A stretch of DNA of 64,000 nucleotides. It comes from Picochlorum sp. SENEW3 (lineage: Eukaryota). The notes under the pieces are model-generated. The model searched no databases. It saw only the letters and a program-made list of their open reading frames with translations, and had not been told where the DNA came from. The stretch is from contig CP120458.1 of the NCBI GenBank assembly GCA_034226945.1, forward strand, positions 806,001-870,000, read 5' to 3'. Positions 5,107-37,200 of the stretch are shown one piece after another. Both the position numbers and the translations under genes were made by a program. How positions within the stretch are numbered: position 1 is the first letter of the stretch; each line of letters opens with the position of its first letter.

Positions 5107-6715
5107 TCATCTTGTTGGTTTGAAAGACAGGCCAACAGGTGGGGGGCACGCCCCAAGACTAGAGTCTGGGGGGCCTTGCTGCTCTGAGGCATCTGATCCC
5201 TTCATTTCCTGATTGGATGTCTCCTCAAGACTCTTGTCGCTATCCTGCGTCGAGACATCTTCCGAGCAATGTGTGTTTGGGCACCATGTCATGTTGCTCT
5301 CCAATGGCATTGCCAATGTGTCATGCAGAGTGACGTCAAGCTGCTGCATATCTGGCAATCTGCCATTCATACAAAACTCTGGGGATGGCATCATCCCTAT
5401 GGCACATGGAGTCCATGCATCGACTCGCGTCCAACTTTCTGCGTCGTGGTGCATATTATGTATCATACCATCGTCATCATCATCATTGATGCGTTTCATG
5501 GTGTCCAACGCCTCTGATGTTGTTGGCATGGTGAAGAATACAGCAGCAAATTCTTCTACTCGTCGCCTGCAAGCTGGAGTCAATGATCCTTTCACCCGTA
5601 TTGTATCAAATGTTTCTCGTAATCTATTCAGCGTCTGATTCAAGTTCTCATCCTCACGGCCTTCAACAAAAGCTTCAATGTGGCGCTGGCGAAGAAGGGG
5701 TCCTTGAACAATCATAACATCCAACATGACAGCATCAATATTCCCAGGTGACATGGTATCAAGCGACTCTTCCATCCAAATTCTACTCATTACTGTGTCA
5801 GAAGATTCAAATCGTTGATCTAAAAACATGCGGACAATCATACAGTGCACATCTGGCCATTCTCCGAGGAGATGGGTCAAGACCCTGGAGCATGCCCTAC
5901 GCAGGGCATGCTCGGGAAACTCTACAGACACGCATTTCAGCATCATCGTCTGAACTAATATCTTCTCTTCACCTTTTGGAACGCTTGTGCGAAGCTCTGT
6001 AAACAGACTCTGCCGATGCTTCTTCTCCTTTCGAACATCATACTCTTCGTTGTCACTAGTATTTGGCCTCTTCTCTCCATTCCCATCACTATCATCATCA
6101 TGTCCGCTAAATATTCCCCTCGATGCCACCGCAATGTGTGAATCAATGAATGTGTTCATCACATCCCGCACACTGGCCTCAGAATCCGCAAGACACGTCC
6201 TCTGAGCCTGCCAGTATTTGGTACGCAACCATTCCAAAGCTTGCTTGGCTGCTACTCTCAACACAGACAACGACGGCAACTCATTATGCGTTGATTCATG
6301 TCTAATATCTACTAAAATTCTAGGTATACCAGCTTGCTGGGCGAGGTGAGCAACAGATGATGCCACTCGACCCTTTTGTGCAGAGTCAGCAACCCCATTC
6401 ACAAAACGCACCAAGGCCAACGAATACTGCAAGCGAATCAGAGCATCCGATACGCTCCCTAGCCGATCTCTGCATAGATAATAGACAACTATATGAGTTA
6501 CATATCCTCCAGATCATGGTGCATAAAATATCGTACGCTTGTTGAGTCTCTCGAAGCAATGCAGTAGCATCCACCCCAACTGGCACTCTTCCACGAATCC
6601 GCCACACAGATACAATATCCAACCCTTGGCTTAGAGCCGTGTCGTCATATAAACATTTTCCTACCGTCTCCCACTCATCCCAGCCCATCCATGGAACAAG
6701 TCTGCCCAGAGACAT
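5107..6715 (-). CDS. LAS1: Las1-like pre-rRNA processing endoribonuclease (HEPN), intron-containing
   Basis: VPWMGWDEW, WRIRGRVPVGVDATA, YSLALVRFVNG, catalytic RHESTH, LEWLRTKYWQAQ. Confidence 0.9.
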
Positions 6716-9831: not shown

Positions 9832-11079
9832 CTATTCCAAATATGTTTTATACGTGCCTCCGAGCATCAATGTGTTGGGCAAGGGCCCTGCTTTTGGTGC
9901 TAAGTACGTGACAATTCCCTTGTCCACATCCACATCCTGAACATAGATGAATCCCGCGACATTAGACGACACAAGCAGGTCAGGAGACGTTGCATGTGAC
10001 ACTGCTACCATAGTAAACATTGTTGCTCTCAAATCAGACACTTTGGTAATCTTCAGAGGGTCAGACACTGATGTTGCGCCAATTGGCAATGCAGTGGATG
10101 GAGCCTTGGGACCTCCTCCTACTTTATACACCTGCAAGTCTTCAATTTTTGCATTCTGAGAGGCGGGATGCAGTTCTTTTTGAATACCATAAAAATATTC
10201 TTCAACCCGTCGTCGCCGAGCGTCGCTTCTGTATTCTTTTGACCGCAGAACTACTCCATCAGACTTTGGTGCCTTGACTACAGTGATACCCTTTGAACTC
10301 AGCGACCTGTTCATCTGACTATGCAACCTATCCTGACCAATCACTAGAACTGTATTTATTTTCAAAGTCTCAATTGAATGCAATAACAAGTCATACCCAA
10401 GTCCTTCCACCCATCCCATTGAATTGACAATCATCCCAGCAGCTGCAGCTGCTGGGTCCTTTTTGCATCGATCTTCCAGCACAGCAGCAAGCCTTTCCAC
10501 GCAGTGCTTATACAACGACGCATTATCACTTGGAGACACTCCTCCATAATAAAACACCACAGGAGGCTCCCCAGGAAACCCTCCCTCCTCCACATCGACT
10601 GGGTTTTCCACGGCACATGCAGCCAGGCACCCAGGCACTGTGAGAGACCCTTGTCCTATATCTACATCCGCAAATACCGGCCCTTTCCCTGCTCTAACCG
10701 CATAGTTTAGCAAAATTTTACACAATGTACTCTTCCCCGAATCAGAAGGCCCCACAAGCATCACCCGTGGTGCTGTACCACCACCAGACAGAGCAGCCTC
10801 ACGCTGTGCATGCAACACGTCATGAATATTCACATACTGCGCCATTGGAGTTTCCTCAGCCACATAAATTACTTCTGGTGTACCTTCCACCTCCAACACA
10901 CAGCCTTGCCACGAAAATATGGCAATCTTCTGCCCACAAATTTTAGTCTTCTGCCCCAACAACAGTGACGTCCCAAAAATCTCAGCCTCCCCGTCCTTGA
11001 GGGTGACAAAAATATGCTTTGACCATTCCACTTCTACACGAAGCTCATGTCCAGCTAATAATGTATACGTCTCTGCCAT
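9832..11079 (-). CDS. CLP1: Polyribonucleotide 5'-hydroxyl kinase Clp1
   Basis: ELRVEVE, GEAEIFG, P-loop GPSDSGKST, DVDIGQG, INSMGW-like motif. Confidence 0.93.
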   Translation of the reverse strand: MAETYTLLAGHELRVEVEWSKHIFVTLKDGEAEIFGTSLLLGQKTKICGQKIAIFSWQGCVLEVEGTPEVIYVAEETPMAQYVNIHDVLHAQREAALSGGGTAPRVMLVGPSDSGKSTLCKILLNYAVRAGKGPVFADVDIGQGSLTVPGCLAACAVENPVDVEEGGFPGEPPVVFYYGGVSPSDNASLYKHCVERLAAVLEDRCKKDPAAAAAGMIVNSMGWVEGLGYDLLLHSIETLKINTVLVIGQDRLHSQMNRSLSSKGITVVKAPKSDGVVLRSKEYRSDARRRRVEEYFYGIQKELHPASQNAKIEDLQVYKVGGGPKAPSTALPIGATSVSDPLKITKVSDLRATMFTMVAVSHATSPDLLVSSNVAGFIYVQDVDVDKGIVTYLAPKAGPLPNTLMLGGTYKTYLE

Positions 11080-11466
11080 TGAATCAAGTTTTCTGCTGCT
11101 CGCCAATCAATTCTGATTCCGTCAGAATTAAAAAAAAAATACCACCGAATGTACTATTCGTTGCTCTAGAATCCTGATGGCTCCTCAATCAACCCCCCTT
11201 TTTCCTGTGAATATTGATTCAACAATTGTTGAATCAATATGGGACATGCATGCAGTTTTCCATGGCGAGGCGAGAAGAGCAACTCCGTATTTCAGGAATA
11301 AAAAAATGATGTGGCAAATCTCCTGACCCGACATGATCCATGCAGACTGCCGCTGTAATCTTTTCCAAGAAACGAAATGAATATGTCGAATCAAATTAGT
11401 TGCACCGATCGTGTACGATTGGTCAATGCGACCCGCAGTCGCAGGGTTCTCGTCGCGACGAAAGCC

Positions 11467-30304: not shown

Positions 30305-31542
30305 TATTGTTATTCTGTCACGTCTTCTTATTAAGAACGTCTACTACTACTACTACTGTGGAGTAGTTGCAGGAATCCCTCCAAAGTGATGGTTACGTCA
30401 AGACGCTCGGCCACTTGGCCCCATTCCTGGCACACTCCTCCAGACTTCTGGAGCCATCAGCACCCACATCGTTCACGAGGAACTAGACATAGCAAACATC
30501 AGCGCTATTGCTACGCATCAAATAGCGTCACCTCCATACTTGGATTGCAGATTTCGTCAGAGACCGCAGCTTATCTCGGCTCAGCTGGACCCTGCAGACC
30601 TACAGCCAAAGACGGTGGCTAAGCAAGTGAAAGAGGCCGGTCCACCAGCACGGCAGCGGCTGGGGGAAACTACTTTGCCAACAACATTCTTAGGACCAGA
30701 CTGAACGCGTGAAGGCACGAAACATGCCTCTTGCCAGGCTTTGAATGGTGTGTCCAGCCTTTCAGGAACAGCGCGAAGATGCCATCCATCAGTTCTTCGA
30801 CGACCACCAGCTGGAACACGCTATAGCGTATGTCCCATTGCGTGCGGTTCGACGGGGCCTAGTTTAAGGCCTCTTCCATACCTCTATTCCATAGTAGTAT
30901 TTAGTGCAGTATGGAATCTTTAGCTGGTTGGTTGCTGGTACACGGGAGTTTCGGTGCTCCAGGGTAGACTGTGAGAATGTCTATTTAGTGTCAGACAGGA
31001 GGAAGAAAGAAGACATGTCCCCACAGCCATGTCTAGGAAGAGGTTGGAGAAGACACAGCCTTGATTGACGAGGCCAGCAGCAGCCAGCCACAGATCCCGT
31101 TGTGGCAACGTGTGGGCAGATTTTTACATCGAGTGCTCGGCAAGCACTTTCAGAACATTCGTGATTAGGTGACCCTTGGTCCGTCCCAGAGCCAACAACC
31201 AGTCCACGCCAAGGGTTTGGGTGATCCCATCCCGAGGTGTGGGAGTGAGTTTTTAGTGAGTGCTACTGCTCTGTCTCCTGACAGGCACGGGCCACCAGGA
31301 AGGAACCACTTGCAACGTGGGCGCTTCTCATTGACACCCCAAGCTTCCTCAGTCGCACAGACAGCCGGGTTCCCTCACGAGAAGGCCGCCCACGCAAGCA
31401 GCAACTTTGTGTCACTCTCTTGCTTCTTCAGCACACCGCCAAGGGAGAGAACACGGCTGAATTAAAAAAATATATATTCGCCGCGAAAGATTTTGGTGTT
31501 TCTATTCACCAGATATTCCGGCATATCATATATCCTGTATCA

Positions 31543-31658
31543 TCCATATTCGAAAGAGCGCAGGTTCGAACCCTGTCACGATCACTGTCGGAATTTCGAA
31601 ATTGACAGAAATATCCGATCAGATCGTGTGGCCGAGCGGTTAAGGCGTATGGGTAAGG
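31543..31658 (+). tRNA. trnL-AAG: Circularly permuted tRNA-Leu(AAG): 3' half 31543-31584, 37-nt linker, 5' half 31622-31658
   Basis: Acceptor stem GATCGTG/CACGATC plus discriminator A; D arm GCC/GGC with A box TGGCCGAGCGG; anticodon stem TATGG/CCATA, loop GT-AAG-G|T; type II variable arm TTCGAAAGAGC; T arm GCAGG-TTCGAAC-CCTGT. Confidence 0.9.
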
Positions 31659-34150
31659 TCCTTAATTAGAACATTAAATATGTTCCGATTATCGTTTTGC
31701 AACATCTCCGTTTGAAGCAAGTGCACCACTTGGTGCAGCTTCCAGCACTTGCTTCTAGGTTTTTTTTACATTCCTTTTACAACACGATACAGACATGCCT
31801 TCTATTTGTATTTAGAACATCAAAAAACGTTCTAAGATTCATTTTGAATCAACAAGGAACTTGTTGTGATGGACCCCTCGGATCTCCTATAGGAGATATA
31901 GCCATGGTTCCATCTTAGAGATCCATAGTATCTCTTATCATCTGAACGTATCCATGAAGATCACCATATATAATATTCTACTTAAATCTATAATCAGGTC
32001 TTAATTAGATATATTAAGTAGGAGATCTTCCTTCCTACTTACACTTGTTGAATTGACCAGCAATTCAAACTGTGGACAGTTACCAGAAAAGATGTGTGGA
32101 TAGCCTGCGTGGTGGATTTCGATACTTTTCTACGGCAATTACATCCAATTGATGATGAGATTTGGATTTATTTGTACTGCCTAGGAAATCCTTGTGCTTA
32201 GACCCATTTTCAGCACGGACACCAATATAGCTCATCCAATCAAGTCATCTCCCGATCATTGGGACGAAATATTGTACTATGCAGAGCGATTTTCATCAGA
32301 ATGGACTGCGTATGGCACCAACTAAATTTTTGACTTGAAAAAGACAGTCCCCAGGGATACTGTCATGGCGAGTTGCCGATTAGTGCAGATAGGCCTCTGC
32401 ACTCCTATATGTGATGACCTTTTAAACAACGTGAGATATAAAAGTGTGCTCGTCATCTGCATCGAAATGATCTCTTCCTACTACATTGGCAGAAATGACA
32501 TTTGGAGCAAGCATATTATGTTTGGAAATTTCTTGAAAGGTTGTCACAATTGGCTTTACAGGAAAAGCCAAACATGTGGGCATGAACGAAACGATTCACT
32601 GTCAATCCGATGGAAGAGAAATTTATAAGTCTAGTGCGATTGGAATGTGATGAGATGAGTCCACCAGGAGCACAATTGTCAGCTTCAACAAATACGAAAG
32701 TCTTCCTCTTTGTTCAATGCTGACAGAAGAAAAGACATGGATCTTGCGTTTCGGAATGCGCATTTCAATATTCTGGATCTATTGTCGGACTTTTATGGCT
32801 GATGTATCATATAAACACTAGATCAAGGTTTTGATTGTGGGAGTATGGGTATCATCATATCTCACAAGAAGTTTGGATGATGACAATCTTCTCACACATT
32901 TGTTCCTCTTGTCCCGTCAATTCACCGATGCTTTGCGATTCATTCTGGAATTAGATCTAATCTGTTATCACTGAAATGCAAACTTAAAGCTTCATGGGAG
33001 CTTTCTGTGACGAGAGGGAAACGACGCCTCTGCGGTCAACAAAGGGTATCAGGAAGCCCCACGCGCGTATAATGTAATGTTGTTCTTTGAGCATCTTTAA
33101 TTCAAGATGTGAGGTATCGCATAGGATTGCCACGGTCTTTTCGTGGCCAAGAGGCTGCGGCGACCATGTCGCTGGCATGGTTAGTCACGTGGCAATGTTT
33201 CATATAGACCACATGGATACACTTGAAGAAATTCTTTACGCCGGAAATATGCGTAACATGGACTCGGAAAGGCTTTCCGCGTCTCTCAGTGGTGGCTGGT
33301 TACGTTGTGCACAACGATAACGACCCTATAAGATGAAAGTTGGTGCCTTTGGCATCGTATACACAGAAGAATTGAACATGTATTTTAGTATCAATAAAGA
33401 AAAACTGAACAGTCATGGGCCATTAACGGGCTTCAGGATGTGAAGAAACGATGAAAGACGCTCTTCTTCTTTTCATCGCTTCGGATCTGCTCCCCTGGAT
33501 CCAGATGACGAGCACGGTATGTTTCTGTATCCTGTGGTGTTCCTCTTTCTTCTGACTATCATTTCTAGTACGATTCTGCGCAGATGGGCCATTTGCAGCA
33601 CTAGCAGCAAGGCCTTGCATTGCTACACCAGGAGTATGGTTTTGGTATCCACAAGTTCTTCCTGCCTTGCTGACTACTTTGAAAAGCCTTTCGTCAGATC
33701 ATCCTCCTCATCATTACAGGACAACAGGTATTTTTCCTACTCGAGAGACCTCTGAGAGGTACTCATGAATGGTGTTATCATGTGTCATCTGAATGAGAGG
33801 AAGACATGTACTTTTTTTAAAAACCTACATACAGAAAGAGAGTCCGAATTGAACGCATGGATGCCATATAAATAATTCGAGTATATAGATAATCAGAGGT
33901 ATTTTGGGTGAAGGAAGGGGTGGAAGATGGATGTCCCATCCATGATTGTTCATGTGCTGCATGAAAGGGTGATCAAGGAATGGGCGCCCTTCATGCACTG
34001 TCCGATGTCGCATCACGGTATGGCATCTGTGTTGTTTTTTTTTTTTCAATCTTGGTCATTTATTTATACTTTTATGAGTATTATTATAATATTACAGAGT
34101 GTTATCGGTCTATACAGCGGAGAGTCGGGTACGCAGCAGGTTTTTGGCCG

Positions 34151-34176
34151 TTTCGCGCGCGGAACTCCCCGCGCGA
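34151..34176. promoter_or_regulatory. E2F-like sites and GC hairpin upstream of the HNH gene
   Basis: TTTCGCGC (+) overlaps TTCCGCGC (-); inverted repeat TCGCGCG...CGCGCGA lies ~100 bp before ATG 34257. Confidence 0.4.
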
Positions 34177-34256
34177 CATCTGCAGCGTGTTCTGGTTTGA
34201 TTTAATCGTATATATGATATTTATATTATGTAGGGTAGATTTCAGCTTTTGAGGAG

Positions 34257-37200
34257 ATGGAGAGGCCCAACAAGAAGAAGAAGAAGGAGGCAGCTTCTGC
34301 CAAGGTGCGTCCACCGTCATATCAAAACTTGCTCTCTTTGTGCCCATCCACCTATTGATTTTTTGTTGTTTTTATAATTCAGAAACCTCGAGAACGCAAG
34401 GTGATGAAGGAACTCAGAAAGTCAGCAGAGGCACCTGGCCAACAAACTCTCAACAGCTTCCTGCAGCGGACAGGGCGCAGTAGCAATGATGGTGATGATA
34501 GTACTATCCCTAGTGGCACAGAAAATGTGCAAAGAAATGAGCAACAACCACCATCGGTTGCCGCCCAAGCGGTGGTAGAAGAAGAGACTAGATCTCGAAA
34601 TGATCCAGGTATGTTGGTGTTGTGTTGGAGTGGTTTTGGGGTGTTTTTATCACATTTTTTGCTGTTGCAGATGCTGCTGTTCAGGATAATAATAGCAAGC
34701 AAGAAGAGGAGGTGGTGGATCTTACCACTGTTCCAGAGGATCTTCATGATGATGGTATTCCTGAATCTCAGGATGCAGCATCGCATGCTGAGCAAGTGAA
34801 GGAGGACTATGGTGAGAGTGGCATATCACTAATGCAGCAATTGAGGCCACTCCATGCCCCTGTGTCTCAATCTCGAGACGAAAGAGAATCAAGAAGGCCG
34901 GCAATTCAGGGCTGCATGGCACTTGTTTCTCCGGAGCAATTTGAGTCCTTGTGTGCGATCGGGAGGCAGGCAGTGCCAATCACAGTGGACGATGGCTCGA
35001 GTCATCCATATGTAGTGGACGCTCCTCGTCTGATGCGGGGCATGGGGATCCTTGAGAAGACTGCCCTTGCCCATGCAATTTATTCTGATACGACTTGCCA
35101 AGGAACCTTGTTTAGAAAGGAAGAATATCCCTCCCTGGTGTCTTCTTCGTTAGGAATGTTCGTGTGTGTGGAGGACGTCATAGAGTGGATGATGGAGAAC
35201 CTTGATGGTTTCATTCTCGAGGAAGTGAAAGAAGCCTTTCAACAGCAGCAGTTTGGTGCCTTTGTGAGAATGTTACAGAATCAAAACATGCTACATATGA
35301 TGAAGGACATCTACTCTGGGTATATGCGCCCGACTGTCAAAATAGTCGAGCTAAAGATCTCCATCAGTCTGTTTGATCTCATCCTCCACATCAAGGAACC
35401 TGGAGTCTGCAGAATGTACTTGCTGGAGGATGACCATACTGCTGCTCCTAGTCATGTTCCGGGACTTTTTTGTGATTCGCAAGATAATATCCATCTGTAT
35501 TGGTCGCAGCCATGGCCTCTTGGCGTTGTCGATACTGGGTCAAAGGGAGAGCGTCGAGAACCTTTCTCATGCAGTGATGTTCTGGTCATGTCCAATGGTG
35601 TGATATTCTCGCCAGTCTCTGGACGCGTGAGGTATTTTAATATACAGGGACGTATGATGAGCACATTCAACGAATCTGGCAACCAAAATGTCATTGCAGC
35701 AGCTGATGTCGTGCATGCTGCTTTATATGGTATATCAGTGGAGGAGGTGCGAAGGCTTCGCCAAGATAATGAGTGGGAAACCGATCACTGCCCCATCTTT
35801 CACATGAATCACTCGGTTCATTGTGTACGACTCGCGACTCGGAGTCAAAATATGCAGAATCGAATTTTCGGGAGAGCATCAAAGGGGCGTACCACATATT
35901 TCACGGAGAGGGAGGCAGAAAAGAAGTATGGCGAAGGAATCACAACGCCAGGGAACGATCCAGGGCAATGGATTCCAGCGTATCTTGCTCATCACTCATA
36001 TACTTTGAGAGATCTGGCAGAATTTTGTGCAGAGAATCAGGAAATCAGCATCTCTTTGCAGCGCGTGGAGGGTCTCTGGGTTCAAAAAGACACATCCATG
36101 TTGTGTCGGGTACGCAAGGACGACTACTATTTCATCATGCCGGAAGACTGTCCATTATGTGAAAGGGCCGCGTATCCAAGAATAGATACGACTATTGATG
36201 GAGTCTCGCATCCAGTCCGTGTGCACTCGATATTGCACGACTCTATCATGAGGCATACAGATCCAGAGTACAAACGTCCCCTGGTCCAACGCCTCGAGGA
36301 TGGTCAATGTCACATCATGGTGGTGGATCACGTCAATCGGGATAGAAATAATCAGCAATCTACCACCCGTGAAGAGAATCATAGACGAAAGCTGGCGCCA
36401 CGGATTGGGCATCTTGAACTCATATCCATGAGTGAGAATACCAGACGTGCAATTGGAACCTGTGTATCCATTGAGATTGTAGACAAGTCTAGAGACCTGC
36501 AATCTGACGCAGAATGCACTGGTATGGTGGAGATTTTCGGATTCCTGCAAGAGAATATTGCCAATGTTTCAGTAGAGGCTCTCAGGTATTGGTGGGAGAA
36601 TAATTTCGTACATGGCAACGTGGCAGACATCATCAGGCAAAAAGAGATTTCTATAGCAATGAATAATATCCAAGTGGTCCATCATGGGCGTGTCGATGCA
36701 TGCAAGGTGGTGACATTGAAATGTCAGGTGGTTCAGCAGCTCATGTCAGACCATCATGGACCCTCGGCAACCTGGGTGTTTGTATATTTTGGGAATGAGT
36801 ATCAGCAGACAGTTAGATTCACATGCGGTATGAGTGCGTGCAAGGATCTAATGTATCAGCATCAGCCTCTAGGAAAGGACAAGGTAGACGTCACGGATTC
36901 TGCAATGCAGCAGCTGAGGCCAACAGGCGACTGCATTCGTTTCTACAAATGCATCGCTCGTCCACTGAACAAAACGCCCGACAACGAGCGTACATGGCTC
37001 GTGAATGGACATGTTCCCCTGTCAATGATACTTCAAGAAAAGTACGAGGAGATTGCCAATCATTATAAGCGCCCCTGTGGACATCTCCAGACCTACTGCG
37101 ATGCTGCCAAGGAGAAGATAAAAGAGTGTACTGGTGAGATAAACAGGGTTGGTGGAATCTCTTTGAGCAGATGCCGCGAGGGGATTCGCTCTCAACTGCT

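Follow-up and report, generated by a model that had tools for sequence, protein, structure and literature searches.

The stretch of DNA analysed here (64,000 nucleotides in all, referred to below as the window) contains the two halves of a tRNA gene in swapped order. Reading of the window placed both strings of letters quoted in the initial annotation exactly where they had been reported, with the 3' half (31543-31584, 42 nt) followed by a spacer (31585-31621, 37 nt) and then by the 5' half (31622-31658, 37 nt). Such an order, with the 3' half first, the 5' half second and a short spacer between them on the same strand, is the arrangement of a type II permuted tRNA gene. The features of the locus, including candidate expression signals on both sides of it, are the following:

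31460..31478, plus strand: AT tract consisting of A and T only, 65-83 nt upstream of the 3' half; candidate TATA-like promoter element
31533..31542, plus strand: end of the leader (last 10 nt), with a predicted hBH-like pairing with the anticodon loop; no listed difference over 31533-31584 in the four runs compared
31543..31584, plus strand: 3' half, tRNA positions 38-73 (ARAGORN; partial Rfam tRNA match over 31531-31584); no listed differences in relatives
31585..31621, plus strand: spacer of 37 nt, the predicted acceptor loop of the precursor, with a hairpin fold of its own and no run of four or more T
31622..31658, plus strand: 5' half, tRNA positions 1-37, ending at G37 (ARAGORN); no listed differences in relatives
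31663..31691, plus strand: trailer hairpin predicted by RNA folding (-7.6 kcal/mol for the trailer alone)
31695..31698, plus strand: T-run TTTT, the first run of at least four T, 37 nt after G37; candidate RNA polymerase III terminator

The upstream half carries the 3' strand of the anticodon stem, an 11-nt variable arm, the T arm (with the B box), the 3' acceptor strand and the discriminator A, while the downstream half carries the 5' acceptor strand, the D arm (with the A box), the 5' strand of the anticodon stem and the anticodon AAG. The B box thus lies upstream of the A box, as originally described. No CCA is encoded, the spacer opening with CTG directly after the discriminator. When the two halves were joined by a script with the 5' half first (31622-31658 joined to 31543-31584, the check that the initial annotation had suggested), ARAGORN called the product as tRNA-Leu(aag) over its full length [1,79]. 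The program drew the proposed type II cloverleaf of 79 nt, with an all-Watson-Crick acceptor stem of 7 bp, a D stem of 3 bp, an anticodon stem of 5 bp, the 11-nt variable arm, a T stem of 5 bp (including one G-U pair) and the discriminator A. The rejoined molecule is a canonical cloverleaf in which the nucleotides of the eukaryotic consensus are present (U8, G18G19, U33, T54-T55-C56 and discriminator A), the exception being G32. A G at tRNA position 32 is very rare.

In its native order the gene escapes conventional annotation. The prediction that standard tRNA scans would miss it proved correct, because ARAGORN (with or without introns) reported no tRNA genes in the native 64-kb window and Rfam gave no match there at the gathering score; at permissive thresholds the only Rfam result was a tRNA match on the 3' half (15.3 bits as compared with a gathering score of 29). 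We scanned the window as overlapping 160-nt tiles, each duplicated in tandem so that a permuted gene would look intron-containing, using ARAGORN with introns allowed. Four of the 3193 tiles matched, all of them overlapping this locus, and the same scan of five block-shuffled windows yielded no match among 15965 tiles (5 x 3193). The permuted tRNA at this locus is not a chance match. The position of the artificial 'intron' assigned by ARAGORN varied, with Leu(aag) named in one of ten tile matches and Val, Asp, Gly or Lys in the others; the tile scan shows the place of the permuted tRNA rather than its identity, and the clean Leu(AAG) call is that obtained with the exact rejoined halves.

A search of sequencing runs returned 24 matching runs, comprising four of organism A (shares of 0.78-0.86), metagenomes (from a salt lake, the sea, a lake, a microbialite and an animal gut), and runs of organisms B, C and D. 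Six RNA runs among the matches had small shares (0.07-0.19) and were represented by contigs; those of run X18 (flagged as 'RNA?' and judged to be probably DNA) contained no joints. For a comparison over 31300-31900 we used the contigs of four runs, namely those of organisms B (X12), C (X14) and D and of one salt-lake metagenome. One salt-lake contig from the Logan set bridges 31438-31706 with three differences, two of which were located (31585 and 31608, both in the spacer); because of these differences it does not come from the same strain. A contig of organism D, also in this order, reaches from 31542 to 31645 and has 17 differences; all nine located ones fall in the spacer. The permuted order is thus present in independent assemblies that continue across the spacer, and the chance that it was made by a mis-join in the assembly, the artefact that the initial annotation had named as a possible refutation, is next to nil.

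In organisms B and C, contigs cover the leader together with the 3' half, as well as the 5' half together with the trailer. Past 31584, and likewise ahead of 31622, these contigs do not resemble the window, the spacer being unalignable and replaced outright; organism B's two loose ends have five letters in common, and a spacer of ∼48 nt would follow from this overlap. Over all relatives, the listed differences affect none of the 79 positions of the exons and 10 of the 37 in the spacer (Fisher p = 4.3e-6), to be read with the differences that have no location and may fall within exons towards the ends of contigs (8 of 17 for organism D, 5 of 12 for organism C and 1 of 5 for organism B). Parts without cover, e.g. 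31447-31467 and 31594-31614 in X12 and X14, were not counted as evidence. Apart from the differences of this kind, the orthologues keep both halves while the spacer drifts.

The edges of the conserved block were provided by organism C, which has seven listed differences within 31508-31532, none within 31533-31584, and then again differences at 31659 (one nucleotide missing) and 31662. Since the differences stop and resume at these points, the block under selective constraint consists of the exons and the last 10 nucleotides of the leader, with G37 as the end of the 5' exon. Its edges at 31533 and 31658 match those expected of an exon ending at G37 and of a leader predicted to pair with the anticodon loop. 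The same observation bears on the exact junction. From the window sequence alone, it could be placed anywhere from 37/38 to 40/41, because TCC is both the triplet after G37 in the trailer and the start of the 3' half. The indel at 31659 in organism C, directly after G37, favours 37/38 and so supports the break that had been put forward initially.

The predicted fold of the precursor is in keeping with this layout. In the RNAfold prediction for 31520-31700, the acceptor helix encloses the spacer hairpin, the T arm is formed, the anticodon stem closes the molecule and the trailer makes a separate hairpin. The stability of this native 181-nt fold is unremarkable (z = -1.15; an equal or better fold in 24 of 200 shuffles). 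At the junction, leader positions -3 to -5 can pair with loop positions 32-34 (G-U, U-A and A-U), position 35 faces G-6 in an A x G mismatch, and positions 36-37 can pair with leader positions -7/-8. This would leave a 3-nt bulge of C-2, A-1 and U38 and an overall hBH-like shape. The pairing is weak (three pairs including the G-U, a mismatch and two further pairs), and RNAcofold prefers another, equally weak one (-6.4 kcal/mol). According to a 2014 review by Soma (PMC3978253), the permuted genes of green algae are of type II (37/38) and have a relaxed hBH motif. As for the spacer hairpin, nine of its 11 pairs are kept in organism D (including one double compensatory change) and two are broken, which is too little to claim a function for it from conservation.

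The weak junction motif, the unremarkable fold energy and the unusual G32 would each suit a non-functional relic, i.e. two conventional tRNA-Leu genes in tandem without their outer halves or a rearranged pseudogene, with a working Leu(AAG) gene elsewhere. We consider this, the chief rival reading, unlikely in view of the contrast between exons (0 of 79 positions) and spacer (10 of 37, with outright replacement in organisms B and C), of an acceptor stem that still has seven of its seven pairs, and of the constraint that extends to the last 10 nucleotides of the leader. In addition, no back-jump joint of the kind expected from a conventional-order copy, or from a mature tRNA, was seen in the contigs of the four runs; this is a weak sign because contigs cannot prove absence.

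The start of the conservation at 31533 could also be taken to mean that the gene is permuted but that its 3' exon begins at 31534, the product being a tRNA of 88 nt whose anticodon stem is rich in G-U (partner strand 31535-31539) and whose variable region has 20 nt. ARAGORN accepts this version, when rejoined, as Leu(aag). We rank it as quite improbable because its anticodon stem is poorer, with two G-U pairs in place of five Watson-Crick pairs, and because the Leu(AAG) of the virus BpV1, as given in the published gene table (PMC3673656), has a short 11-nt arm directly after the anticodon stem. The longer form also has nine extra unpaired nucleotides before the variable stem, and the predicted hBH pairing explains the conservation of the leader equally well. 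We thus retain the 79-nt tRNA with its junction at 37/38.

In the account given by the 2014 review, permuted genes depend on a TATA-like or AT-rich sequence upstream, for which 50 bp is quoted in C. merolae (PMC3978253). The AT tract at 31460-31478 is a candidate for such a promoter element by analogy with that account. It lies at -83 to -65, i.e. further upstream than in C. merolae, and three of the four runs of relatives have no cover over 31447-31467. Likewise, the TTTT at 31695-31698 is a candidate terminator of only four T.

A gene expressed in pieces, with the halves transcribed separately and joined in trans without a circular intermediate, would fit the swapped order formally, but is highly improbable at this locus. 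Both halves are on one strand, the 37 nt that separate them contain neither a run of at least four T nor an A/T tract, and the studied algal cases covered in the 2014 review all use one transcript and a circle (PMC3978253). This is not the layout of the Nanoarchaeota-type split genes, which is defined by separate loci with promoters of their own.

Overall, the locus is very probably a functional, circularly permuted nuclear tRNA-Leu(AAG) gene of type II, with its junction at 37/38, in a green picoalga of the order Chlorellales. Maturation through a circular intermediate has been demonstrated experimentally in C. merolae and Mamiellales (as summarized in PMC3978253), and by analogy with these cases the following route can be proposed. 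A single RNA polymerase III transcript would start downstream of the AT tract and cover the 3' half, spacer and 5' half before ending at the T-run behind the trailer hairpin. Its body would fold as a cloverleaf in which the spacer hairpin closes the acceptor stem and the two ends of the transcript form the anticodon stem, with the last leader nucleotides pairing with the anticodon loop in the hBH-like motif. The tRNA splicing endonuclease would then cut after G37 and before U38, and tRNA ligase would join the two exon ends to yield the circular intermediate. From this, RNase P and tRNase Z would excise the spacer, followed by the addition of CCA. Editing of A34 to inosine lets tRNA-Leu(AAG) read CUU and CUC, and A34 of the present tRNA is presumably deaminated in this way. 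In 12 long ORFs of the window, these two codons account for 187 out of 592 for leucine, so the locus would supply the reader of about one third of the window's leucine codons.

We compared the locus with the permuted genes already on record. Table 1 of the 2014 review lists 34 of them, with spacers of 1-74 nt and no Leu(AAG) among the entries (PMC3978253). The 37-nt spacer of the window falls within this range, and type II is the green-algal norm in the same table. The type II genes of Mamiellales (Ostreococcus as well as Micromonas; Maruyama et al. 2010, as cited in PMC3978253) include Leu(TAA) and Ser(CGA). As far as that compilation goes, they resemble the window gene in the order of the halves, the 37/38 junction, a class II tRNA and a spacer length that lies within their 11-64 nt.

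As a direct yardstick we used metagenome contigs retrieved with a pattern requiring the B box before the D arm. This gave six loci, of which three (L061-L063) are permuted Ser(CGA) genes of Mamiellales and three (L058-L060) turned out to be ordinary tandem tRNA genes. In all three Ser(CGA) loci, positions 32-34 are paired with -3 to -5, followed by mismatches, and a 3-nt bulge is left. Their leader is conserved over its last 9 nt, the trailer diverges from +3, and a T-run stands at +25/+26, preceded in two of the three by a stable trailer hairpin (-7.5 and -10.9 kcal/mol; the third is weak, -1.0). In its predicted, weak pairing, the window gene would have the same register of 32-34 with -3 to -5, the same 3-nt bulge and the same strength. 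Judged on sequence and predicted pairing, it matches the Mamiellales Ser(CGA) members as well as they match each other. It differs from them in belonging to Trebouxiophyceae, in being a Leu(AAG) gene, in having G32 and thus a G-U as the first loop-leader pair, and in its T-run, which is shorter and further downstream (+37 vs. +25/26).

A published precedent is Auxenochlorella UTEX 250-A, a member of the same class and order (Chlorellales). There, the tRNAscan-SE set was incomplete and permuted genes were then found, the one illustrated in Fig. S1 being Pro(UGG) (PMC12636532; Plant Cell 2025). The statement of the initial annotation that no such gene was known from a trebouxiophyte has therefore been overtaken (PMC12633428 / PMC12636532), and this type of gene is already on record for the class. 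On the other hand, Auxenochlorella is another genus with another type of genome, the window belonging to a picoalga of 46% GC, and the gene illustrated is Pro(UGG). A text search of the accessible part of its supplement found no mention of tRNA-Leu (PMC12636532).

In the red alga Cyanidioschyzon merolae, type II genes include, e.g., Leu(CAG) (Soma et al. 2007), and both the circular intermediate and an aminoacylated product have been shown, according to the summary in PMC3978253. The architecture is the same as in the window and the pathway is presumed to be so. Unlike the window gene, the C. merolae set as summarized there also has junctions at 20/21, 50/51 and 59/60, strict BHB motifs and, in some cases, extra introns. 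The permuted genes of the two algae are likely to be of independent origin.

The list of known holders in the initial annotation named Cyanidioschyzon and the prasinophytes Ostreococcus and Micromonas, as do the sources above, but lacked Bathycoccus, with seven permuted genes, and its virus BpV1, with one, Thr(TGT) (Michely et al. 2013, PMC3673656, Table S5). The T arm of this viral Thr(TGT) gene is common to the window gene. The same table gives BpV1 a Leu(AAG) gene with the same 11-nt type of variable arm and a nearly identical T arm; unlike the window gene it is conventional in order, has different acceptor and anticodon stems and carries U at position 32 (PMC3673656). A 2026 review still names only O. 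tauri, C. merolae and B. natans for permuted tRNA genes, and PlantRNA 2.0 mentions such genes only for red algae. In the literature outside subscription journals we found no report of a permuted tRNA gene in Picochlorum or for Leu(AAG).

Wider searches with parts of the gene returned unrelated loci. A 24-letter stretch of the 3' half had no match in JGI metagenome contigs. Viral contigs with a 20-letter core (three loci) proved to be ordinary phage or giant-virus tRNA arrays, one of which (L003) holds native tRNA genes together with one duplicated-tile match. Prokaryotic contigs (54 loci) have only the T arm in common with the window gene; judged by their titles, they come mostly from DPANN and other archaea, with several from bacteria (Patescibacteria and actinomycetes).

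The assignment of the host follows from the surrounding genes. The window has a GC content of 46.2% and densely packed long ORFs, including those for starch synthase, Clp1, Las1, a DDX1-like helicase and methylmalonyl-CoA mutase. Among the best 120 matches of Clp1, the nearest named relatives are Chlorellales (Chlorella vulgaris and Micractinium conductrix, 59%; Parachlorella, 56%; Auxenochlorella, 55%), followed by Coccomyxa and Chlorophyceae, and no Mamiellales appear; the 'apparent trebouxiophyte' of the initial annotation is thereby supported. Picochlorum genomes are given as 13.3 Mb with 46.0-46.5% GC (PMC6141220, Table 1), and methylmalonyl-CoA mutase is described as present in most Picochlorum (PMC12458973). 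We take the host to be a trebouxiophyte of the Chlorellales that is probably Picochlorum-like. An observation on the minus-strand segments 9832-11106 and 5107-6432 of the window is probably a coincidence.

Around the tRNA gene, ∼4.2 kb (30400-34600) contain no ORF of at least 150 aa, and none of the 11 small ORFs around the locus has a Pfam match. This stretch is long relative to the mean intergenic distance of 220-364 bp given for Picochlorum (PMC6141220). Within it, the segment 31300-31425 stands out in X12, where its summed contig depth is 5-60x that of the tRNA locus and variant contigs are numerous (22 with A>G at 31361); a 15-nt insertion after 31411 is common to three runs. The segment may represent an element that is multicopy or under strong conservation; the small ORF that overlaps it (31169-31465) is among those with no Pfam match.

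Some contigs of the relatives point beyond a single gene. In one contig of organism B (X12), the D arm and anticodon stem are those of the window gene and lead into a CAG loop and an unrelated T-rich trailer (loose end at 31652). Its sequence suggests a permuted Leu(CAG) paralogue that would have arisen by duplication of the permuted Leu(AAG) gene and a change of anticodon. Organism C (X14) has extra contigs with the same 3' half in which both the leader and the continuation differ (loose ends at 31542 and 31584); these may represent further permuted loci or a tRNA cluster. In this continuation, what appears to be the T arm of another tRNA follows within ∼16 nt of the discriminator. That the permuted genes of this Picochlorum-like lineage form a small family multiplying as permuted units is a tentative proposal, for which we would put the chances somewhat short of even. 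The tRNAscan-SE counts tabulated for three Picochlorum genomes are 24, 42 and 75 (PMC6141220, Table 1), and in two Picochlorum genome papers (that one included) tRNAscan-SE is the only tRNA search described. If such a family exists, hidden permuted genes would explain the short tRNA sets (24 and 42) of two of the three genomes. Together with Auxenochlorella, it would also make the architecture widespread in core Chlorophyta and not a prasinophyte peculiarity.

The practical side of the finding is that tRNAscan-SE, ARAGORN and Rfam are blind to permuted tRNA genes, and because of this the genomes that contain them appear unable to read some codons. Picochlorum algae are under development as production strains, and as a transformable host the alga would open the circular-intermediate pathway to genetic testing. 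With respect to evolution, the gene extends the catalogue of permuted genes to a new isoacceptor and to a second lineage of trebouxiophytes, and bears on the question of whether this architecture is ancestral in green algae or has arisen repeatedly.

Two minor features of the locus may be added. No repeats of the tRNA halves themselves were found near it. The last six letters of the spacer (31615-31621) repeat the last six of the tRNA (31579-31584, the 3' acceptor strand and discriminator), so that the end of the spacer could compete for the 5' acceptor strand; this repeat is kept in organism D and not in organism B. The 5' arm of the trailer hairpin (31663-31678) recurs 146 nt downstream (31809-31824) with 88% identity, and the copy also lies in a small hairpin.
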